Notes: generated by a model not told the origin, from the letters alone. A stretch of DNA of 64,000 nucleotides from Desulfomonilia bacterium (GCA_963664325.2 CAXXDQ010000004.1:448001-512000), one strand, 5' to 3'; shown: positions 10,081 through 59,759, counted from the stretch's first letter. A program made the numbers and translations.

Positions 10081-11940
10081 ATGCCAATGTCAGCGATAAC
10101 CTCTATAAACGAACTTGGTGCATACAGGGCCGCAGCCGAAGCGGGACTGAACAAGGACCTTCCGTACGCCCTGGTATGCTGGGGAACCGGTTGCCTTGCA
10201 AACGGCTCCAAAGCCGTTGCCGAGGCGCTTGCCAGAGAGATAGAAACCCAGGGCCTCAAGGTGGACGTGAACATCGGACTCAAGACTACGGGCTGCCACG
10301 GCTACTGCGAAAACGGCCCTCTGGTCGCGCTCATGCCGAAGGGCATCCTTTATCTTAAGGTCAAGGAAAAGGATATCCCGGAGATCGTTGAAAAAAGCAT
10401 AAAGGGCGACGAGATAATCGAACACCTAATCTATAAGGACAAAAACACGGGAGAGCTCGTAGCCCAGTACAAGGAGATACCGTTCTACAAGCACCAGCAC
10501 CGCATAGCACTCAGGAACATAGGCGAGATTGATCCCACGAACATAGACGACTACATACTCTCCGGTGGGTATGACGGCCTCGCCAAGGCACTCACCATGG
10601 ACGGCGACGCGATTATCTCCGAGATCGAGAAATCAGGCCTTCGCGGCCGAGGGGGCGGCGGCTTCCCCGCAGGCACAAAGTGGCGCTCCTGCAAGGCCAT
10701 AGCATCCGATGTCCGCTATGTCATCTGCAACGGCGACGAGGGCGACCCCGGCGCATTCATGGACCGCTCGGTCATGGAGGGCGACCCGCACTCGGTAATC
10801 GAGGGCATGATCATAGGCGCCATAGCCGTGGGCGCGCATCAGGGCTACATATACGTGCGCGACGAATATCCGCTGGCCGTCAAGAACCTTGCGAAAGCGA
10901 TAGCCGCGGCGAGAGAAAAAGGCTTCCTCGGCAAAAACATCCTGGGAACGGGATATGACTTCGATCTGAAAATAAGCAGAGGCGGCGGCGCATTCGTATG
11001 CGGCGAAAGTTCGGCGCTTATGCGTTCGGTCGAGGGAAAGGTGGGCGAACCCAGGGCCAAGTACATACGCTCGGTCGAGAAAGGCCTCTATGACAAGCCT
11101 ACGGTACTGAATAACGTCGAGACCTGGGCGAACGTGCCCGAGATAATCATCAAGGGCGCCGACTGGTATTCTGCGATGGGGACAAAGGGCTCCAAGGGGA
11201 CCAAGGTCTTTTCCCTTGTCGGCAAGGTCAACAACACGGGCCTGGTCGAAGTGCCCATGGGCGTCACAATCCGCGAACTCGTACAGAACATAGGAGGCGG
11301 CGTCCTGGGAGGCAAGAAGTTCAAGGCGGTTCAGACCGGAGGTCCTTCCGGCGGCTGCATCCCGGAAAAGCTCGCCGACCTGCCGATAGACTTCGACAGC
11401 CTCACCGAGGCAGGCTCGATGATGGGCTCGGGCGGCATCATCGTGATGGACGAAGAGACCTGCATGGTCGACGTTGCACGCTACTTCATCAACTTCCTGG
11501 TGGGCGAATCGTGCGGCAAATGCACCCCGTGCCGCGACGGGCTCAGAAAAATGCTGGACATCCTCACGGCAATAACCGAAGGCAAAGGCCAGCCGGGAGA
11601 CATCGATGTCCTGGAAGAGATATGCGGAACGCTCACATGGGCCGCGCTCTGCGGGCTCGGATCATCGGCCGCAAACCCTGTACTCTCCACGATCAAGTAT
11701 TTCCGCGATGAGTATGATGCGCACATCAATGACAAGAAGTGTCCCGCAGGAGTCTGCAAGGCGCTGATAACGTATTCGATTACGGAAGCCTGTACGGGCT
11801 GCACCCTGTGCGCCAAGAAGTGTCCGCAGGAGTGCATCACCGGCGAGAGAAAAGGACTGCATGTCATTGATACTGCAAAGTGCATCAGATGCGGAATCTG
11901 CAAGGATGTCTGCAACTTTAACGCAGTGAAGGTGAGCTGA
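10081..11940 (+). CDS. NuoF/HydB-like FMN/NADH-binding subunit (Bfu-type) with N-terminal 2Fe-2S and C-terminal 2x[4Fe-4S]
   Basis: [69 protein letters not shown], two ferredoxin motifs. Confidence 0.95.
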
Positions 11941-49470: not shown

Positions 49471-49836
49471 TTATGAAATCTCCTTGTGAGTTTCACAACT
49501 GCTTCCTTTCATTATAACGGAAAATGCTTAAAGAGGAAGATGTTCATTTGAGATATGCATATTCAGGCAGCCTGGGAAAAACGCGTCTTTCGCGGCAAAT
49601 AATTATTTGAATGACCGGGTTATGCGGTAGAAATGCCATATGCAGGTAGAGAAACAAGCAATACAGATATACGACCTTTTTCCAGATGCGGACTGGGAGG
49701 TCCTTGAACCGGCTTCCTGTGATCACGATATTTCTGTAATCAGGGATTACAGCCTTTTTTCCGACGCGCGATATCGAATATGCGGTGCATGCCGAGATAT
49801 ACAAAAATTCCCGGTTTAGTACTGCCGGAATTACGC

Positions 49837-51585
49837 TTAGTTTAACTTCAATAAATGTATCTTAGACTCGTTTTGCATGTCCCATGGGTTATCCGTAACG
49901 CAAATAAGTCCCGTGCTGCCATCAGGCATGATGAAGATACTTTTCGGGCTATATTTTTTTAATTCATCATTTACATATGACTGGTAAAGAATATCGCCGG
50001 TTTTGTCTGTTTTAAAAACATGTGCGCTTTTCAGAAAGTACGGACTTGATGCGAAAACGAGATCTTCATTGGCTGTTTGAGTTATGTATGATTTTCCATG
50101 CAAATTATTTCCGATAATCTTATATGAAGCAACTTGTCCATTATTCGAAACCCATGTTATTTTACCGGTTTCCTCATTAAAATTTGATAAGCTGACATTC
50201 TCAACCCTTTGCCAGCCTGCAAGAATCATATTCCCGTCAGCGCTTTCAAATATCGAGGTAATGTTTTCATCCTTATTGAGAATCCAATTGTTTTCCAGCA
50301 CCAAGGTTCCTTGCAAATCCAGTTTGAAATAGTAATCATTAAAGAAGCTGTCCCAACCGCCGTTATCCAGGCCTTTTCTGGCGCCGCCTGCTGAAACAAG
50401 ACAGCCATCGCCTGACTGTATGATTGAAAAAGGCTCTTCTATATACAGCCTTTCGCTTTCCCATTCCCATTTCTTGTCCCCATTTCTATCAACCTTTATT
50501 ACCGTCAGACTGTAATCATCAGATATACCTAGAATAAAATCGTGATCCCCTGTTTCAATGACTTCCACGTTATTTTCCGCACCATTTTCTACTAAGCCGA
50601 CAGCTCTTTCCCAAACGACACTTCCCTGTTCATCCGTCTTCACAATATATGCCTGTTTACCGCCTTCAGATCCCGGAATCCCTGAGGAATCGGATATCCC
50701 GGCCGCAATGAATCCTCCGTCCGAGGTTTGTTTGATTGAATAGAAATAATCCATTCCCGTTCCGCCGAAAGGCTTCTCCCATAAAAGGCTGCCGTTTGAA
50801 TCAATTCTTGCCGCATAAGCATCATAGCAAAATCCGGAGGGATTATGATTTGCATGCCTGTTGAAATAATAGCAGGGGAGATTTCCTGCTATGACGAATC
50901 CGCCGTCCTTAGCCGGAGCGCATGCGCTGACTTCAACATAACTGCTTGTCCTGAAGGAAACCGCCGGGACGTGAACCAGCCTTGAATATGAATAGTTAAC
51001 CTGTACGCCAGGTTTGTCTGCGTGGCTGCCTTTGGCCCTGACCTCTATTTCATTCATGCCCGTATCATCGATACCGGGAGTGAAGTCATAGGTCTTTCCT
51101 GTGCCGACCAGTGTTCCGTTAATGTACCACTCATAATTGAAATTCCCTGTTGGATAAACCTGTGCCTCTATCCTGCTTGTCTGTCCGGCCTCGAATACAG
51201 ACCTGCTGTCGGTCATGGTTACGCCCCTGACGATTACTTCCCATTTGGCGTAACCAAGAGCATACAAGCCATCTCCCGGTACATAACCCATTGCCCTGCA
51301 TGAAATATTATTGATCCCGACATACTCCTTTGTCGGGATGAAATATGCCGTTGATCTTTTTAGCGGGCTTGAATATCTTTCAAACATACTGTTGATTTTG
51401 TCTGGAATATCCCATTCAATGTCGCAGAACATCCATGGTTCTGTTGCAACGGTCGTCGCTGAAAAGGCAAGCGGTTCCCCGACATTTATAATGATGGTTT
51501 TATCTGAAGACGGGCTGCTTTTAAAGCATCCGCAGAGTACAGTACAAATCAGAAATAGTGCAATAATCACGCTGATCCGCTTCAT
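49837..51585 (-). CDS. hypothetical lipoprotein with Ig-like domain and beta-propeller-type repeats
   Basis: Lipobox LCGC; YEWYING; repeats such as DGGFVIAG, D.NG.LLWEK.FGG, QTSDGGFIAAG. Confidence 0.75.
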   Translation of the reverse strand: MKRISVIIALFLICTVLCGCFKSSPSSDKTIIINVGEPLAFSATTVATEPWMFCDIEWDIPDKINSMFERYSSPLKRSTAYFIPTKEYVGINNISCRAMGYVPGDGLYALGYAKWEVIVRGVTMTDSRSVFEAGQTSRIEAQVYPTGNFNYEWYINGTLVGTGKTYDFTPGIDDTGMNEIEVRAKGSHADKPGVQVNYSYSRLVHVPAVSFRTSSYVEVSACAPAKDGGFVIAGNLPCYYFNRHANHNPSGFCYDAYAARIDSNGSLLWEKPFGGTGMDYFYSIKQTSDGGFIAAGISDSSGIPGSEGGKQAYIVKTDEQGSVVWERAVGLVENGAENNVEVIETGDHDFILGISDDYSLTVIKVDRNGDKKWEWESERLYIEEPFSIIQSGDGCLVSAGGARKGLDNGGWDSFFNDYYFKLDLQGTLVLENNWILNKDENITSIFESADGNMILAGWQRVENVSLSNFNEETGKITWVSNNGQVASYKIIGNNLHGKSYITQTANEDLVFASSPYFLKSAHVFKTDKTGDILYQSYVNDELKKYSPKSIFIMPDGSTGLICVTDNPWDMQNESKIHLLKLN

Positions 51586-52087
51586 GACATTATCCTCCCA
51601 TGAAATCATTATATTTTATTAGCCAGGGAAATTCGTCCGGCTGATTAAATATCCCTCCATCCTGCTAATAATCAAACATGCAACAAGCAAAAAAAGAAAC
51701 ATTAATAATAAAGAAGCCGATATAACATAATACATAATGTTTGAGCTTATTGCTTATGTCAACACAGGTGTTATTAAAAAATTACTTTCCGGTCCTTTCA
51801 GTGTTTCAGCCGTTCGCAATCAGCGAATATGTATCTCTATAATATATGCTGGCGAGGCTGGAATAAATAACCAGCCGATGCGCATGGATTTTTGATATCG
51901 TGTTCTTTTGTAAAGGAAGTTTTTCCAGGTAAGAAATAACGGACCAGACCCTAATCAACTGCGGGTCCGAGACATTCACGATAAAAATCAAGACAAAGGG
52001 CAAACCCTTCCGCGGGTGGATATTCCCCTGTCGAACTTAACCTTATTTCTGCTTCTTTGCGGAAGCTTCATCTGATATGTAAATCTT

Positions 52088-52447
52088 GTGAGCAGGGATG
52101 ATAGGTCTGTTACGGTTTATTCAAGCGGGAGAGGCCGGATCTGCCCGGGCTGCGGTCAGCCTGTCGGCAGTTGCAATTGCAAGAAGCAGGTGGTTTTACC
52201 GAAGAGTGACGGCACGGTGCGGGTATGCCGCTCAACAAAAGGCCGCGGCGGCAAATGCGTGAGCCTTGTCACCGGCTTGCAGATGGAAACGGATGAACTG
52301 AACAAACTTGCCAGGCACCTCAAGCAAAAATGCGGTTCCGGCGGCACTGTAAAAGATTTCGCTATCGAGATTCAGGGCGATCATCGCGAACTTATCGTAA
52401 AAGAGCTTGCCGCACTCGGCCATAAGGCCAGGCTTGCAGGCGGCTGA
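52088..52447 (+). CDS. yciH: SUI1/eIF1-like translation initiation factor
   Basis: KGRGGK.V...GL, LKQKCGSGGTVK, IEIQGDHR. Confidence 0.92.
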   Translation: MSRDDRSVTVYSSGRGRICPGCGQPVGSCNCKKQVVLPKSDGTVRVCRSTKGRGGKCVSLVTGLQMETDELNKLARHLKQKCGSGGTVKDFAIEIQGDHRELIVKELAALGHKARLAGG

Positions 52448-52564
52448 GTGCGGATATCGATAACTGCCGAGTCCTTGCCGGAAAAAAGTTTTGTGTGGAT
52501 TCGGGCAGGGCTAGAAGGTTTTATGATTTACATGAAAGCCGTCCTGTCATAACTTGTCCCAACC

Positions 52565-53029
52565 ATGACGAATAACGATATCCTGCGGCGCATCCGGTAT
52601 GCATTTGACTTTAACGATCAGGTAATGTCTGCGATCTTCGGCCTGGCCGGTTATCAGGCAGGCCGGGAGCAGGTCGTGGGCTGGCTCAAGACAACAGATG
52701 ATAGCGCATATCAGGACCTCACCGACAAAGAGCTCGCGATTTTCCTGAATGGTTTCATCAATTACAGGCGCGGTAAAAAAGAAGGCCCGCAGCCCGAACC
52801 CGAAGAGCGGCTTAACAACAACATCATTTTTAGAAAACTGAAGATCGCCTTGAACCTGCAGGCGGAAGAGATAATCGAGATCATGAACCTTACCGGTATA
52901 TCCATGAGCAAGCATGAACTGAGCGCGTTTTTCCGCAAACCCGACCATAAGCATTACCGGGAGTGTAAAGACCAGATTCTGCGCAACTTCTTGAAAGGCA
53001 TCCAGCTTAAATATCGTGCAGGCAATTGA
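52565..53029 (+). CDS. yehS: DUF1456 (YehS) family protein
   Basis: MTNNDILRRIRY, FLNGFI..RRG, NN.IFRKLKIAL, SKHELSAFFRK.DHKHYREC.DQ.LRNFLKG. Confidence 0.88.
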   Translation: MTNNDILRRIRYAFDFNDQVMSAIFGLAGYQAGREQVVGWLKTTDDSAYQDLTDKELAIFLNGFINYRRGKKEGPQPEPEERLNNNIIFRKLKIALNLQAEEIIEIMNLTGISMSKHELSAFFRKPDHKHYRECKDQILRNFLKGIQLKYRAGN

Positions 53030-53053
53030 TTAGTGTCTTTAAGTAACCGGCAA

Positions 53054-53089
53054 GCTGTTAAACCTGATAAGCCTGATAACGCTGATAAA
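53054..53089. repeat. four degenerate tandem 9-mers
   Basis: GCTGTTAAA CCTGATAAG CCTGATAAC GCTGATAAA. Confidence 0.6.
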
Positions 53090-53110
53090 TAAAATTTCAA
53101 AATAAGTTGT

Positions 53111-56008
53111 TCAAGAGTGAACGTCCCAAGAGTCCCCGCCTTTTTGTGTTCCCTTATATAAAAAATTAGGAAATGGTGAATAAAAACCTTCTCCCACTAC
53201 ATCGATGTTTGTAACAGGCATATTGTGTTCTATCCCCCATCCAAGAATTGTAAGAATTCCGTTAGTCGCACGAGCAGCTTCAACTGCTCTCGATTCTTGG
53301 TTCAACATAATTATAAGTTTCAGTGGTATCCCGTAGATTTTATGGAGACGTATAATAGTTTCCCAGAATCGGCAAAGCTCACGGAAACTTGTCTGATCAA
53401 GCTCAAGAGCAGGATCGTCCATGATGATGCATGGATGATGAAAACGGCCATATGTCAGATACCGGGTGAAAAACCATGCGAGACCTAGCAAATGCATTTC
53501 GGAATGATTAAGAATGTAGCGCGCCAGCCTTCCGTTAACTTGTATGGAAGACGATTTTTCTCCCTTTTTTATCTCAGCTTTGATGCCTGGTTTGTCTGGA
53601 TAAATCCATGGGGCGGACGTCATATAAAAAGCAATTTCATACCAGAGTTTTTCAAGAGTATTGGGTAAATGATCCTGAACGATTGATCCAAGAGTCTTTT
53701 TCAATCTGTCCTTCACTGGCTTCCAATTGTCCGGGGATTCGAAGGTCCTTTCCGCTTCAGTGAATGTATCTATGATTTTCTGAGTAACGAGATCTGCTTC
53801 AGATTCTGCCTGTGCTTTATTGGGAATTGAAGGAATCCGGCATACTCTTTTTATATCATCTAATAATATTTCTCGTTGTTCTTTTATTCCGATCCAGTCT
53901 GCAATCGAGGTATTTGATGGAACAAACCATTGAAATGCTACAGTCAGGCGTGTCTGATCTTCATTATTCAAAGGGCATTGCAATTGTCCCGATAAACTCA
54001 TTTCTTTTTGGATACTTTCAATATCGGATTTGAGTTGAGAATATTCGCCTAATTTTTTATCGCGCTCTGCTTCTGTTTTTGCTTTGAGGGATTGCACGAC
54101 TTTTAATATCCCCCCATGTTCCTCATGTCTTGCCCCACAAGTTGGACAATCGTCAGGATGGCTTTTTGACCAGGTTTCCCGGATAAAGGCATCGACTTGA
54201 GTCAGGTGATCATAGTGCGTGCGTATGTTACGGCCTTCTTCTAAAATCCTTGCTTGTTCCTTTTGTAATGAACTCAATCGTTCGGAAAATGTTTTATTTT
54301 CAGCCTGGGCGGAATTTGCTGGGGCCTGTTTTCTTTTTTCAAGCCATTCACCCCATATTGTTAACTGGGAAATCGAGTTATCGATTTCTTTGCGTACAGG
54401 TTCGATGATTATTTCAGCATTCTTAACGAGTTCTTTTGATCTTAATACCAAGTCATTATAAAGATTTAGATAACTGGTAATGTTATTTATCATGCGATCT
54501 TTATCAGGATACGCATATGCGATTGACTTTGCAATATCGCCCCGGTTTTCATTGTCTCCCCATGTATGCCAAGATGCTGATAAATTGCTTTGTCTGATTT
54601 CGCCTATCGATTTTTCAGCCGTTTCCAGCCATGAAACAAACACATCCGGAAAAACAGGCAGGGATTTGTCGATCTCTTTTTTTACTATCCTTTCATATGC
54701 GGTGTCGATTTTTGTAATTGCAGAACTCAGGTCGTTTTCTTTCAGAAAATCCTGTCGTTTCTTGTTTGCCTGTATCATGCGGCTATCCGTGAATTCTTCA
54801 ACATGCTCAGCCAGGCCTGAATATCCAAGCAGAATACGCGCACCAAGTTCGGATGAAGACATGTTGGTAAATTCAAGGCTTGCAACCTGGGTGAGAATTG
54901 TACCGGACATCTCCAAGTTGGCTTTTGCAGCCGTTTCTGCTTTATCGACCGGACGGATTGCTTCAAGAGGCTGTCCATTCAAAGAAACTTCCGGCGTTGA
55001 ACCGACTTTTAACGGAGACAAGTATTTGATGTATTCCTTGTCTCGATTTACTGCGGAGATATCTTTTTCAAACGTTTTATCCGAGAACATCCTGTAACGA
55101 TATGACGATCCGAACAATGCAAAAGACATGGCTTCGCATATGCTGCTTTTGCCGGTCCCGTTCGGGCCGTGAATGATGCTGACTGCAACCGGTTTGGAAT
55201 TAAAATTGAGATGAATATCACTAATATTCCGGAAACTTTTAATACGTATATCATTGATCCCGTATGTTTTGTTTGGTCTGTTTTCTTCCTTATTCATGAA
55301 TTCTTTTGAAGGGTTGTATTTATGCATGGACTGAATCACTTCTCTGGCGTAATCCTGCTGCTCTGGCTTGGAAAATCCCTTTTCGAAGTTTGTCATGGCT
55401 GTCTTAACCTTGTCATCCGCGCTCATCCATGTCTCAATCTCTTCTATTTTCTTTTTTTTGAGTATGCTGCGTACAGTCAATAAAAGATGCGGAAAATCCA
55501 TTTCCGAAAATCTGGGGGCACTTGAATCGTCAATGAAGGTCACATCAAACGAAAGCTCTTCGGAAAAACCGGTTTCGCTCCGTATTGATACAATTCCATC
55601 AATCCAAGTTTTTTGATCCGGTTCATTGACAAGCCAGTGAAGAATGATTCTCCATGAACCATTTTTGTCGCAATCTCCGGTTGGAGAACCGATATAATTT
55701 CTTTCCGCTGTTAACTGTGATCTGATTCCCAGAGCGCGTTTTATTTGTTTACGGGTTTTAGTTTTTTTATCAAACGAAAGCAGATAATAGAGGATTCCGA
55801 TTTCCGGATCAATTATCAATACTGCCGGATTGACATCCGATCCTTCAGGAACGCTGGTGAGATCTTCTTCGGAGACATCCATCCATTGAGGTGCATTCAT
55901 GCCGGAAGAGTCTGTGCGAATTGCAGCCAATTCAATTTCCAGGTTTTTACGATAGAGTTCGGTTATGGCTTCCTTGCAGGTACGGAGTATATCTTTGTTC
56001 TGAATCAT
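53111..56008 (-). CDS. Rad50/SbcC/SMC-like ABC ATPase with zinc hook and about 245-aa N-terminal extension
   Basis: IRIKSFRNI, Walker A GPNGTGKS, Q-loop ILTQ, coiled coils flanking CPTCG, degenerate signature LNHSE, Walker B/D-loop IIMDDPALELD. Confidence 0.85.
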   Translation of the reverse strand: MIQNKDILRTCKEAITELYRKNLEIELAAIRTDSSGMNAPQWMDVSEEDLTSVPEGSDVNPAVLIIDPEIGILYYLLSFDKKTKTRKQIKRALGIRSQLTAERNYIGSPTGDCDKNGSWRIILHWLVNEPDQKTWIDGIVSIRSETGFSEELSFDVTFIDDSSAPRFSEMDFPHLLLTVRSILKKKKIEEIETWMSADDKVKTAMTNFEKGFSKPEQQDYAREVIQSMHKYNPSKEFMNKEENRPNKTYGINDIRIKSFRNISDIHLNFNSKPVAVSIIHGPNGTGKSSICEAMSFALFGSSYRYRMFSDKTFEKDISAVNRDKEYIKYLSPLKVGSTPEVSLNGQPLEAIRPVDKAETAAKANLEMSGTILTQVASLEFTNMSSSELGARILLGYSGLAEHVEEFTDSRMIQANKKRQDFLKENDLSSAITKIDTAYERIVKKEIDKSLPVFPDVFVSWLETAEKSIGEIRQSNLSASWHTWGDNENRGDIAKSIAYAYPDKDRMINNITSYLNLYNDLVLRSKELVKNAEIIIEPVRKEIDNSISQLTIWGEWLEKRKQAPANSAQAENKTFSERLSSLQKEQARILEEGRNIRTHYDHLTQVDAFIRETWSKSHPDDCPTCGARHEEHGGILKVVQSLKAKTEAERDKKLGEYSQLKSDIESIQKEMSLSGQLQCPLNNEDQTRLTVAFQWFVPSNTSIADWIGIKEQREILLDDIKRVCRIPSIPNKAQAESEADLVTQKIIDTFTEAERTFESPDNWKPVKDRLKKTLGSIVQDHLPNTLEKLWYEIAFYMTSAPWIYPDKPGIKAEIKKGEKSSSIQVNGRLARYILNHSEMHLLGLAWFFTRYLTYGRFHHPCIIMDDPALELDQTSFRELCRFWETIIRLHKIYGIPLKLIIMLNQESRAVEAARATNGILTILGWGIEHNMPVTNIDVVGEGFYSPFPNFLYKGTQKGGDSWDVHS

Positions 56009-57645
56009 AAATCCCCCAACGTTATTTCATTTATATCACTTCCTTTAGCGAAACGCGGTAAAGAAATCTCTCGTGCAACGATTTCCTTGAGTTCATTTTT
56101 TGTGTTATTGTCTATATTACCGGATGAATCCGGAGTAAGGAATAAAACTGATAATTTATCAAATTTCCCTGCACCGGATGTTTTGATGGAGTCAATCAGC
56201 GGCCTCAATCCCTGAAGGTCGTTTGGTTTATCACCCCATGCTGGAACAGGAATGACAAGGTGAGTATTCTGATACAAACCTCCGGGAAATGTTTTATAGT
56301 CCCATTTATCTCCATGGCTTGAATTAATAAGACCAGCTAGAAGTCGCGCTGCTGCTTTCAGCTCAGGACGACTGATGCTGCGAATTGTCCATGGAATATG
56401 TTCATCTCTACTTTCAAGATGAATATCATCAATTGATATGGTTTCACAGCTATCGCCTCTAATGCATTCGACTAGGCCACATCTCCAGCACAAACGAACC
56501 CATACCGGAAGTAAATTGTCTGCCCATTGGATAACGAAAGGCTGATCATCAGGTGGATTTTCAATTCGAGAGCGAATGTCTTGTATTGCCGGTTTGTCAC
56601 TATCATTCGCCCATAAATCTAGGCAATCAACAGCATAAAGAGACTGAAGCCAAAGGAATAAAACGTCTGTATCCAAGTTTGCCTGATTTACATCAATATG
56701 AACGTTGTTTTTTCCCTTGCCATAAAAACCGGCAAGACGTGTATGACCTTCACTGTTGAAAGTTACATCTATTATGCTTAATTCATCATCAGGCAAGGAG
56801 TGTCGATCTGTTAAATTTGGGCAAATATTTGTTTGCATATAATCAAGAAGATATTGTTCCGATACTTTCCATCCGGCAATCACAAACGGATGGCTGCTCA
56901 GTTTTTCACAAAGCGAAGCAAAAATGAATTGTTGAGTTCCTGTATTAAATGTTGTCGTGTCTAAACTATTTAATTCTGTTTCGGTAATGAGAAACCTTTT
57001 TGAAGATGTCAGGGCTTCAGCATAATGCCCGCTTTTTTCATATTCTTCAGCTTTTTCCAAAGCATTTACGCAACCGTGTGGTTTTATTACTTTCACACTA
57101 GCGGTTTCTCCCATGCCGGCACAGTCTTGGGCTGTAATAAATGTGCGAAAGACGGTAGGCCATGGGAGCATTTCATCAGTCCCGTCATGTTTGATCCCTA
57201 CGTTTTCCAAAGCACTTTCCTGGATACAGTCCCAGTTCAAAGACCATATCTGCTCCCACAGGCTTTCACGCGCAAATCTCGCAATAACCCGGTGTCTTGG
57301 CGTATTCCTCGCAGGAGAAACACAGCCATGCCAACAAGTATCGGTAGTGATATTCAACGACTTCGCCAATTCCAATTTAGGATTGCGGCTACCGTTTGTT
57401 GAAAGATGATTATAAACCTCGTCAGCCCACTTATATAGATAATCCCATGGCAATGGCGGTGTGCTTGACAAAGATGCATTAAATCTGAGTACAATTTCCG
57501 CATTCGTGCGTTTTTGCTCTAGAAGGCTTGGTGGGCTCGGAATAAGGCCATATGACATACCCGCACCAATTAATAAAACTGATTTTCGATGTTCGCGATT
57601 TCCAATACCACGTAGCATTGGAAAGTTATGTGGGATAACTGGCAT
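56005..57645 (-). CDS. SIR2-like (SIR2_2) domain protein with unknown C-terminal domain
   Basis: LLIGAGMS, IWSLNWD..QESAL, VIKPHGC, FVIAGW motifs in sirtuin order; ATGA overlap with the ATPase. Confidence 0.8.
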   Translation of the reverse strand: MPVIPHNFPMLRGIGNREHRKSVLLIGAGMSYGLIPSPPSLLEQKRTNAEIVLRFNASLSSTPPLPWDYLYKWADEVYNHLSTNGSRNPKLELAKSLNITTDTCWHGCVSPARNTPRHRVIARFARESLWEQIWSLNWDCIQESALENVGIKHDGTDEMLPWPTVFRTFITAQDCAGMGETASVKVIKPHGCVNALEKAEEYEKSGHYAEALTSSKRFLITETELNSLDTTTFNTGTQQFIFASLCEKLSSHPFVIAGWKVSEQYLLDYMQTNICPNLTDRHSLPDDELSIIDVTFNSEGHTRLAGFYGKGKNNVHIDVNQANLDTDVLFLWLQSLYAVDCLDLWANDSDKPAIQDIRSRIENPPDDQPFVIQWADNLLPVWVRLCWRCGLVECIRGDSCETISIDDIHLESRDEHIPWTIRSISRPELKAAARLLAGLINSSHGDKWDYKTFPGGLYQNTHLVIPVPAWGDKPNDLQGLRPLIDSIKTSGAGKFDKLSVLFLTPDSSGNIDNNTKNELKEIVAREISLPRFAKGSDINEITLGDL

Positions 57646-57888
57646 GATAATTAAACCCCAAAAATATAATATATCAATTTATATATTAAAATGCATAATT
57701 ATAGCAGAATGTCAAAAATTAAATACTTACGATCCTTTGTATGACAGATGATTTAGAAAGATTCATTCTTGAAAAATATTAACCTTGATGTTGATTCGCC
57801 ATATAAACTCAAAATTAAAATAATCATATGAACATAACGATCTGAGTCATGGCAGGCGGAATCATCCACCTGCCGTGCTGTTCTCCGA

Positions 57889-58203
57889 TCATTCCATATA
57901 CGGATCGACGAAGGAGATATCGGCCGACTGGTCGGAGAGGTTCTCTTTGGTAAACGGCTTCATAATGTATTTATCGGCGAATGCTGCTAGGAACCGGTTC
58001 ATGCCGAACCACGTGTCAGCGAGCTGCTCCTTTTTCATATCCAGTATGCTGCGATAATAGTCGAGGGCTTTTTCGCGCTCTCCCATCAGGTCGCATGCCA
58101 TGCCCGCAATGAGGCGGCTGTGGCCGAGTTCGCAGAACGACTGCTTTTTCTTAAGAAACTTTTCGATTTCCGTGTGAGCCAGGGATGCTGATTCTATAAA
58201 AAC
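57889..58203 (-). pseudogene. 5'-truncated gene fragment (TPR-like C-terminus)
   Basis: Frame stays open 34 codons upstream of the first ATG with no start or RBS; GMACDLMGEREKALDYY is TPR-like. Confidence 0.45.
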
Positions 58204-58208
58204 TTATT

Positions 58209-59759
58209 TCAGTCTGTTCCGGTCACTCCGCCGGTCGGGGCTGGCAGGGATACGATGACCGCCGCGTGCGCAGGCACGTTTACGGTCACGCCGCCGGCGT
58301 CGGTTGTTGCCGTGCCATCGGACCAGTTTGGCGCGCCAATGCCGAATGTGTAGGCTTTAAGGGGATCAAGTGCATTGAGGGTCCGCACGGCTGCCTTGGC
58401 GCCGGCATTCGCCCCTGCGCTGCATGTAAGGCGCACCCGCAGGCTGCGGCCGGGCGAGCGGTTGATAAGTATCGTGCGCACTACGCTGTCACTGCCGCAG
58501 GCGAAAGCGCCTAAGAGCGGCATCGCGGTCTGCGCCGGCTTGGCTCCGAAGGCCGGGACGTTGACTGTCGGAGAGGAGACCTGCATTGCCAGGCGGCGGC
58601 CGGTCATGGCTTGGCCGAGGCCGGTAAGCGCATTGCCGCTTGGGCGCATCGTGCCGTCGCTGTACATCGCGCCGAACAGCCAGTTGCCGATCAGCGACCA
58701 GTGCTCGGCGCTGTCCACGTCGTCGCGCGCGGCCAGGGTGCAGATAAGGTCGGTGGTGTAGACCGCAGCGGCCAGTGAGCAGGTAACTCCATCGCTGCGC
58801 GGTATCGGGTTCCATGTGCCGTAAACGGTCATCAGTGCGTTATGCTCGGTCATGGCAAAGGGCGCGTTGATGTCAGCTGCGGTGAGCTGGGCGCGAATCG
58901 CGTCGAGGTCGGCAGCCACGGCCGGTGCTCCGGCGAGGGTGGCGCGCAGCATGTCGGCGTCGGTGGCCTTGACGAAGGTATAGTTGAACGGCAGGTAGGC
59001 GTCGTGCACAGCGACAAAGTCGACCCGCTGGTTGAGACCCGCCAGCACGTCTGCGTTCCAGGTCTGCCGGCCGGCGGGAAGGAGTGCTGCGTCAAGCGGG
59101 CCGAGCAGGGGAAGGCCTACCCGGACACGCGGATCTGCCGCAATCAAGGCCGCGGCGTGGGCGTTATAGGCGGCAGCATACTCTTCAGCTGTCATGTCCC
59201 ATTCAGGATGAAGGCTGTTCTGGTAATAGGGCTCGTTGCCGACCTCCCAGTCGCGGGCAATAAGGCTCCCGCCGGGCGGATTGTTCACGTATGACACCCA
59301 GGCGGCCGAATCTTCCGGCGTGCCGTTCACCACGTTGAGGGTGAACATCGGCGCGGCGCCGGTTTGGGCGCACAGGTCGAGGAACTCGTTGGTGCCGAAA
59401 TAGACCGTCTGCATCGCGCCGGTGAATACATGCATGCATTCGCCGCGGACATCTCCCACGCCCTGGCGCCAGTCATAGGCGTCGGCCTGCCCGCCGCCGG
59501 GATAGCGCAGCACCGTAGGGGCGAGTGTTACAGCTTGAGCCAGGGGAACGGCGGCGAAGCCGGTCGAACCGGGCTGGAGGATGCCGTCACCGGAGTCGGT
59601 CCACTGCATGTTGCTGCCAAGGACTCGGCGGTTCACTTCAGGGGCCGCCTGAACGCCGACTGCGGAATTGTCTATGGTAACTGTAGCATCGGGCGCACAC
59701 CCTGCAATGAACAGGAGTATGAGCATGACGAGGCCAAGTTTAAAATGAGTATACATCAT
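58209..59759 (-). CDS. clan GH-A glycoside hydrolase lipoprotein (GH51 alpha-L-arabinofuranosidase-like)
   Basis: Lipobox IAGC; LRYPGG..AD.YDW, FGTNEF, WEVGNEP (acid/base), TEHN (nucleophile); visibly more GC-rich than its neighbours. Confidence 0.8.
   Translation of the reverse strand: MMYTHFKLGLVMLILLFIAGCAPDATVTIDNSAVGVQAAPEVNRRVLGSNMQWTDSGDGILQPGSTGFAAVPLAQAVTLAPTVLRYPGGGQADAYDWRQGVGDVRGECMHVFTGAMQTVYFGTNEFLDLCAQTGAAPMFTLNVVNGTPEDSAAWVSYVNNPPGGSLIARDWEVGNEPYYQNSLHPEWDMTAEEYAAAYNAHAAALIAADPRVRVGLPLLGPLDAALLPAGRQTWNADVLAGLNQRVDFVAVHDAYLPFNYTFVKATDADMLRATLAGAPAVAADLDAIRAQLTAADINAPFAMTEHNALMTVYGTWNPIPRSDGVTCSLAAAVYTTDLICTLAARDDVDSAEHWSLIGNWLFGAMYSDGTMRPSGNALTGLGQAMTGRRLAMQVSSPTVNVPAFGAKPAQTAMPLLGAFACGSDSVVRTILINRSPGRSLRVRLTCSAGANAGAKAAVRTLNALDPLKAYTFGIGAPNWSDGTATTDAGGVTVNVPAHAAVIVSLPAPTGGVTGTD

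Follow-up and report, generated by a model that had tools for sequence, protein, structure and literature searches.

A SIR2-type effector paired with a zinc-hook ATPase: a probable Lamassu-like two-gene module in a Desulfomonilia bacterium

Two minus-strand open reading frames (ORFs) fill positions 53111-57645 of a 64,000-nt stretch of DNA from a Desulfomonilia bacterium, referred to here as the window: gene 1, encoding a SIR2-type effector, and gene 2, encoding a zinc-hook ABC ATPase with an extra domain at its N-terminus. Together they make up a genuine module of two genes that is conserved and moves horizontally; its domain identities, catalytic residues, co-inheritance, sporadic horizontal spread and defence-island context are established by the data presented below. 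Judged on sequence features, it is probably a Lamassu-like abortive-infection system that combines a SIR2 effector with a built-in extra domain, and its most likely position is that of an unclassified branch of the Lamassu family. An earlier interpretation, made from the DNA alone (the sequence-only reading), had proposed a divergent Lamassu-like or new two-component system in which a middle component may be fused to the ATPase. The features of the two genes are as follows.

56005-57645, minus strand: gene 1 (P0001), 546 aa, SIR2-type effector
56626-57645, minus strand: predicted SIR2 (SIR2_2-type) NADase domain, gene 1 residues ~1-340
57553-57567, minus strand: GAGMS, gene 1 residues 27-31
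57229-57243, minus strand: SLNWD (Asn137), gene 1 residues 135-139
57073-57084, minus strand: KPHG (His190), gene 1 residues 188-191
56008-56625, minus strand: conserved C-terminal domain of gene 1, residues ~341-546, presumed to dock on the ATPase
53111-56008, minus strand: gene 2 (P0002), 965 aa, zinc-hook ABC ATPase with N-terminal extra domain
55319-56008, minus strand: orphan N-terminal alpha/beta domain, gene 2 residues 1-230
55262-55318, minus strand: poorly conserved, low-confidence linker, gene 2 residues 231-249
53114-55261, minus strand: Rad50/SbcC/LmuB-like ABC ATPase with coiled coil, gene 2 residues 250-965
55145-55168, minus strand: Walker A GPNGTGKS, gene 2 residues 281-288
54137-54148, minus strand: CPTC zinc hook, gene 2 residues 621-624
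53498-53512, minus strand: degenerate signature LNHSE, gene 2 residues 833-837
53414-53431, minus strand: Walker B CIIMDD, gene 2 residues 860-865
53294-53305, minus strand: LNQE in the place of the H-loop, gene 2 residues 902-905

At E ≤ 1e-3, 150 homologues were recovered for gene 1 and 92 for gene 2, so both genes are real. The ATGA start/stop overlap described in the sequence-only reading was verified and amounts to 4 nt, and all of the motifs quoted there are present at the coordinates given above, the Walker B motif being an addition to them.

Gene 1 had been called a sirtuin with the Asn and His needed for catalysis, and its relatives bear this out: Asn137 and His190 were both invariant in 50 aligned relatives, within a set of fixed positions comprising G27, G29, S31, N137, W138, D139, K188, P189, H190 and G191. 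In a profile-to-PDB alignment, the NWD and KPHG of gene 1 fall on the NYD and KIHG of the SIR2 protein of SIR2-HerA. P0001 itself found no match at E ≤ 1 in Pfam, PADLOC or NCBIfam, and none when used alone in a search of PDB sequences; 37/50 of its relatives matched Pfam SIR2_2 (PF13289), and 6/8 of those re-scanned exceeded the curated cut-off of that family, over residues ~130-285. The AlphaFold model of gene 1 (predicted local distance difference test, pLDDT, 91.8; predicted template modelling score, pTM, 0.93) had as its nearest solved structures the defence NADases KomC, ThsA and Avs5, which ranked above deacylases and whose entry titles describe helical or filamentous assemblies. The GxGxS NAD loop, the catalytic Asn/His and the SIR2 Rossmann fold are thus all found in gene 1.

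The ~200-aa C-terminus of gene 1, noted earlier as unmatched, has no Pfam or PADLOC family match, and no PADLOC model captures the effector. This domain was confidently modelled, and fold searches barely probed it. Q334 of gene 1 is invariant, as are D376, W382, C386, P418, R426 and P468 within the C-terminal domain, which also carries a conserved ...RDEHIPW loop. In the ESM Atlas it scored 0.76-0.78 to SIR2_2-labelled clusters, below lead level, with otherwise no usable matches.

The description of gene 2 as a zinc-hook Rad50/LmuB-like ATPase with a degenerate signature and H-loop stood once its motifs were verified. Pfam recognised SMC_N and AAA_23, and the best and sole near-full-length PADLOC match was to LmuB model PDLC03859 (8.4e-17, residues 250-883), which was also matched at ≤1e-10 by 31/33 gene 2 relatives. 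K287, Q374, C621, C624, N834, E837, D864, D865, D871 and Q904 were invariant in these 33 relatives; the family is therefore characterised by a single zinc hook, a Walker B ending in DD, a non-SGG signature and Gln in place of the H-loop His. When the ATPase profile was compared with the PDB, matches were confined to the Walker-A region of Rad50, RecF, OLD and GajA.

The head of gene 2 is preceded by a stretch (the first ~245 aa) that the sequence-only reading could not place, and no Pfam or PADLOC family accounts for it. The domain is nonetheless a constant part of the protein: it was conserved in 19/19 loci holding gene 2, each with Walker A at residue 260-290, and its invariant positions (alignment A2) are Y19, D67, G71, D114, W119, W125 and W135 in the first half and R143, E150, E151, D155, P173, L175, L176, R180 and W194 in the second. 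When its profile was run against 1.84 billion representative proteins, 143 matches came back, 135 of them at ≤1e-10, and in all 143 the domain lay at or near the start of the protein, full-length examples being 880-975 aa long; for this reason the domain is seemingly confined to the gene 2 family and always fused. The inspected matches of ~700 aa and ~200-240 aa were mostly fragment-like, starting inside the domain or ending in a frameshift-like tail, and two short ones (P0214 and P0256) stop within the linker. A split form of gene 2 was not found, by searches none of which was aimed at shorter proteins. The model of the domain (pLDDT 75.4, falling below 50 from residue 235) has the order alpha-beta-beta-beta-alpha-beta. 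Its profile reached at best E 0.31 against PDB sequences, and Foldseek gave no match at E ≤ 1e-3.

The two genes are inherited together. Surveying a single genome for each species gave 23 loci, from Pseudomonadota (11), Verrucomicrobiota (5), Campylobacterota (3), Acidobacteriota (2), Bacteroidota (1) and an unclassified PVC bacterium (1), and co-conservation of the pair was upheld, a gene 2 relative following gene 1 directly in 20/23. The exceptions were two contig ends (L015 and L022) and a 151-aa remnant (L020). Where the gene 1 match reaches its stop codon, the intergenic gap in other loci is <20 nt. Pairwise distances for gene 1 and gene 2 across 17 loci were strongly correlated (r = 0.967; 0/2000 permutations as high), and no third gene was common to more than 3/20 loci. 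Decay was seen at three loci: all that survives at L020 (8001-8504) is the opening 151 codons of gene 1, gene 2 of L002 is frameshifted at about 10717-10741, and L023 (9541-11841) holds a decayed copy with both genes in pieces.

A defence-island setting is also borne out, with defence or mobile-type genes within 5 kb of the pair in 13/17 loci, 8 of these 13 having clear restriction-modification, STAND, toxin-antitoxin or Wadjet neighbours. The remainder of the 13 have helicase or nuclease genes among the types of neighbour counted. The genes encountered included XhoI with a methylase, nSTAND3, HigB, HicB, Wadjet-like DUF7281/MksE, PLD-SNF2 with an Eco57I-like methylase, AAA_21 with DUF4276, Uma2, Schlafen and UvrD-like genes. 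The window itself has, as previously stated, unrelated surroundings (DUF1456, SUI1, MFS transporter, lipoprotein and GH39-like genes), and neither Mre11/SbcD nor a kleisin is among the window neighbours of the pair. More widely, no Metallophos gene stands beside the pair in the window or in 16/17 loci, and at L011 a separate Metallophos+AAA_23 operon lies upstream of it. Searches of phages with P0001, of viral contigs with the A1 profile and of plasmids with the ATPase part (tblastn) gave no match.

Some loci have further genes close to the pair. A same-strand DUF2130 gene ends just upstream of it in a betaproteobacterial/PVC subclade (L013 6657-7958, L018 6463-7998, and fragments in L016) and may represent either an extra component or a separate system next to the pair; at L013 a KilA-N gene is found there too. 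Immediately upstream on the same strand, L012 (15-7847) and L019 (457-7823) carry genes for a PLD-SNF2 helicase and an Eco57I-like methylase along with a DprA-like gene, a DISARM-like or type IIG-like cluster, and downstream at L012 are two AAA_21/AAA_15 ATPase genes, one with a DUF4276 gene after it.

Within its own lineage the module is sporadic. P0001 was found only in the genome of the window (G000) in a set of 41, of which 3 belong to its genus and 21 to its family, and the ATPase profile only there in a set of 401 from the phylum. Genome G303 (locus L064), of the same genus, has the DUF1456 gene 870 bp from the 3′ end of a conserved gene; in the window the matching flanks (84-86% nucleotide identity to G303) are 4.8 kb apart, with the module between them. 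No direct or inverted repeats flank the insert, which with its upstream region is delimited as follows.

53031-57847, strand not applicable: inserted segment holding the module, from the end of the DUF1456 gene to the remnant of the conserved gene
57646-57847, minus strand: AT-rich upstream intergenic region (23% GC), presumed promoter-bearing

The AT-richness reported earlier for the module and its upstream region was confirmed (GC 0.415 in the module and 0.233 at 57646-57847, against 0.502 for the window). A single weak sigma-70-like site lies upstream of gene 1 at 57850-57823; the count of promoter-like and terminator-like sites was not above shuffled expectation, and an Rfam scan of 52000-59000 gave no match at E ≤ 0.1. 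At the site occupied by the module in the window, G303 has a 201-aa ORF with a signal-peptide-like start (L064 2053-2658), so the spacer after the DUF1456 gene is a variable spot in the genus.

Two other parts of the window drew attention. The stretch at 57848-58170, with a 70-aa minus-strand ORF at 57889-58101, is the C-terminal remnant of a gene of at least 190 aa in G303 (L064 2902-3474); the remainder of that gene is replaced in the window by a high-GC (0.59-0.66) gene at 58209-59759, not found in three same-genus genomes, and together the remnant and this gene suggest that another insertion took place next to the module, separately from it. The stretch at 49500-52000 is likewise low in GC (0.38-0.47) and may be foreign too; its lipoprotein-like ORF of 590 aa (49837-51609, minus strand) has weak PKD and Big_2 matches only.

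A precedent for the domain plan of the pair came from a search of the phylum with LmuB model PDLC03865, which found a two-gene Lamassu at L066 (G346:C373, 5631-11220, minus strand). Its effector, P0351 (627 aa), matches LmuA PDLC03850 at 7.7e-36; its ATPase, P0350 (1237 aa), matches LmuB PDLC03861 from end to end at 7.1e-94; the two genes overlap, and the locus is without LmuC. P0350 has ~205 aa ahead of its ABC head, a stretch that alone matches LmuB model positions 11-222 and that scored 23.8 bits against Pfam PF20289 (MComp1), under the 27.3-bit cut-off; in the closely related P0356, PF20289 appears as a precomputed annotation. P0350 had 46 homologues at E ≤ 1e-3, most of ~1240 aa, and the N-terminal region was kept in 46/46. 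On these sequence matches, two-gene Lamassu with an apparently middle-component-like N-terminal domain in LmuB exists among modelled systems. The neighbours of L066 are a RadC/JAB-like gene and a type I restriction endonuclease fragment.

The Lamassu-like assignment rests on architecture and motifs, since homology to LmuA and LmuC went undetected and the LmuB match is non-specific. 'Long' LmuB proteins are marked by an hhhhDD Walker B and a single CxxC, according to Haudiquet 2025 (PMC12663957), and gene 2 has both, CIIMDD at 860-865 and CPTC at 621-624, invariant in the 33 relatives. The DD Walker B was found in 41/41 PDLC03861-type LmuB proteins, which also have in common with the gene 2 family the lack of SGG and of the H-loop His; SbcD-neighbour ATPases retain LSGGQ, DE and the H-loop His. 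Gene 1, directly upstream of the ATPase gene, has the LmuA architecture of an N-terminal SIR2 and a conserved C-terminal domain. With a 4-nt overlap, no ORF fits between the genes and there is no separate small LmuC; type I and L066-type Lamassu lack LmuC as well, so this alone is no bar to membership. The proposal that a middle component is fused to the ATPase fared less evenly: it has a precedent in L066, with whose LmuB arrangement the N-terminal domain agrees in position, size and linker, but that domain is without detectable sequence, profile or fold similarity to LmuC or MComp.

Several results weigh against a place within Lamassu. By hhalign, the probability for the N-terminal domain was 0.1% against five short LmuC and 0.4-0.6% against the L066 MComp1-type domain; G000 had no match to PF20289 at E ≤ 10; and the 50 fold-search rows for the domain, all at background level, included no LmuC, DdmB or SbcD chain. 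None of the 50 effector relatives matched the PADLOC LmuA models at E ≤ 0.01, and hhalign gave the effector 0.1% against 8 short LmuA and 0.07% against the L066 LmuA. As to the ATPase, the gene 2 family scores 1e-17 to 1e-20 on PDLC03859, compared with 1e-33 to 1e-190 for true LmuB with LmuA and LmuC beside them, while SMC-like ATPases with SbcD or MADS neighbours reach 1e-21 to 1e-28 (L046-L052 and L058 have SbcD-like or MADS, mad1/mad2, neighbours and no adjoining LmuA/LmuC), so a bare LmuB match near 1e-20 is non-specific. Against five groups and three single sequences, profile comparison of the ATPase part yielded E 1e-6 to 1e-10 in seven cases and 1e-3 for L050, placing it about equidistant from all groups tried; its closest PDB sequence relatives are Rad50 heads; and in a head-domain tree, from which the short LmuB rows and L051, L052 and L058 were left out, the gene 2 family stood alone on a long branch (length 2.39), no nearer to any one group. 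Housekeeping neighbours alone surround the pair in 4/17 loci and in the window itself. The sequence-based negatives for LmuC and LmuA are, however, weak, because LmuC and the C-terminal domains of LmuA are too diverse for sequence methods (PMC12663957).

These same results give some room to a different origin, and it is possible, as a tentative second reading, that the pair forms its own defence family, either independent of Lamassu or very deeply sister to it, whose acid-rich N-terminal domain would be a new built-in adaptor or sensor gating a filament-forming SIR2 NADase. At 50% identity the pair family falls into ~140 clusters, which span at least five phyla and come nearly all from uncultured bacteria. 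In the strictest form of this idea, which we think rather unlikely, the pair would be a SIR2 and SMC-like family not descended from Lamassu, its Rad50/SbcC-like ATPase having recruited SIR2 itself; the N-terminal domain would then be a new sensor or regulator and not an LmuC equivalent, and NAD+ depletion would be the same but the trigger might differ. Such independence is suggested by the lack of LmuA/LmuC homology in hidden Markov model, profile-profile or fold comparison, by the non-specific LmuB match, by the isolation of the ATPase in the tree and its equidistance in hhalign, by the confinement of the N-terminal domain to the gene 2 family among the 1.84 billion representatives, and by the independent gain of Sir2 effectors even within Lamassu that PMC12663957 reports. 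Against it stand the DD Walker B and missing SGG and H-loop His held in common with PDLC03861-type LmuB, the hhhhDD and single CxxC that PMC12663957 reports for long LmuB, and a gene order and domain plan identical to those of L066, where an effector with a C-terminal domain is followed by an ATPase with an extra N-terminal one; and the divergence of LmuC and LmuA C-terminal domains, which PMC12663957 places beyond sequence methods, tells against reading the missing homology as independence.

The N-terminal domain might instead be a second effector, a PD-(D/E)xK nuclease, in which case DNA sensing and DNA cleavage would both fall to the ATPase, and SIR2 would serve as a back-up. The modelled alpha-beta-beta-beta-alpha-beta order and the invariant acidic residues D67, D114, E150, E151 and D155 are compatible with this, but there is no invariant lysine, D67/E69 lie in a hairpin and not on canonical D...(D/E)xK strands, Foldseek found nothing at E ≤ 1e-3, and neither Pfam nor PADLOC returned a nuclease family, which leaves a nuclease very doubtful. 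That the pair is a housekeeping DNA-repair or regulatory unit, an SbcC-like ATPase with a protein-deacylating sirtuin, is in keeping with Rad50 heads as best PDB sequence matches and with direct neighbours in the window that are not defence genes, but is highly improbable given the lack of an SbcD/Mre11 partner, the restriction to G000 among its 41 relatives and among 401 phylum genomes, the low-GC insert at a variable site, a SIR2 of SIR2_2/defence type for which defence NADases outrank deacylases, the degenerate signature and H-loop, and defence neighbours at most loci.

Returning to the Lamassu-like reading, we infer a defence function, its trigger, the sequestration of the effector and the activation of the NADase by analogy with solved Lamassu complexes (PMC12663957; bioRxiv 10.1101/2025.06.23.660979). 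A dimer of the ATPase, linked through its zinc hooks, would survey the cell for foreign DNA in the form of ends or replication intermediates from phage or plasmid. At rest it would hold one inactive SIR2 effector by way of the effector C-terminal domain, and the N-terminal domain of the ATPase would probably contact the effector, in the position of the separate LmuC of three-gene Lamassu. Sensing would lead to release of the effector, and the released SIR2 would be expected to oligomerise, destroy NAD+ and so abort the infection.

To our knowledge, solved Lamassu mechanisms concern Cap4-nuclease effectors only, and no Sir2-armed SMC-like system has been characterised. The pair is a compact two-protein version in which the putative adaptor is covalently joined to the sensor, which should ease reconstitution, and it should reveal the way in which an NADase is turned on by a Rad50-like sensor of DNA ends. 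Gaps in annotation come to light as well: neither the effector nor the extra domain is picked up by PADLOC, whose LmuB model PDLC03859 is non-specific around 1e-20. Should the N-terminal domain prove to be a middle component that has diverged, it would connect Lamassu systems of the fused and the split type; otherwise it would count as a new regulatory module.

As to novelty, PADLOC and Pfam models capture neither the effector family nor its C-terminal domain nor the N-terminal domain of the ATPase; Sir2-armed and fused two-gene Lamassu are already described or modelled. The novelty of the pair is judged against those models and the texts of papers, and it may fall within a catalogued Lamassu clade; the literature searched, to which supplementary subtype lists did not belong, holds no account of Sir2 with a zinc hook, of Lamassu-Sir2 or of ABC-3C with SIR2 in such an architecture.

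L066-type Lamassu resembles the window pair in having an effector with a C-terminal part, encoded by a gene that abuts or overlaps that of a zinc-hook ABC ATPase, and an LmuB with an extra domain of ~205-230 aa and a linker before the head, with no separate LmuC. It differs in its effector, a PDLC03850-type enzyme where the window has SIR2; in the length of its ATPase, ~1240 aa against 965 aa, from which it follows that the coiled coil of gene 2 is shorter; and in its N-terminal domain, which matches MComp1 (below cut-off), whereas that of the window is without a match and without profile similarity to L066. Lamassu with Sir2 and 'long' Lamassu (Millman 2022; PMC12663957) have like the pair an N-terminal Sir2 effector with a C-terminal domain, and usually, unlike the pair, a separate LmuC; the long LmuB of the latter source is SMC-like and carries the hhhhDD Walker B and one CxxC, as does gene 2. 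For Sir2 Lamassu, abortive infection by loss of NAD+ is likewise predicted. Type I Lamassu (LmuA-LmuB, Bacillus cellulasensis; bioRxiv 10.1101/2025.06.23.660979) is a two-gene system, as is the pair, but has a Cap4 nuclease effector and a short LmuB without an N-terminal extra domain; there the LmuB dimer keeps a monomeric effector from activity, and DNA ends release it.

Beyond Lamassu, gene 1 has the fold and the Asn/His of the defence SIR2 NADases KomC (Kongming), ThsA (Thoeris), Avs5 SIR2-STAND, SIR2-HerA (Nezha), DSR2 and SPARSA. Defence SIR2 proteins are partnered by HerA, STAND, Argonaute or a cyclic-nucleotide sensor domain, whereas the partner of gene 1 is a Rad50/LmuB-like ABC ATPase, and unlike the NADases listed gene 1 bears its own ~200-aa C-terminal domain without a family match. 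Gene 2, for its part, has the ABC head, coiled coil and CxxC zinc hook of SbcCD and Mre11-Rad50, but has no nuclease partner and carries YILNHSE, DD and LNQE instead of LSGGQ, DE and the H-loop His; and the module, unlike SbcCD, is accessory and horizontally acquired.

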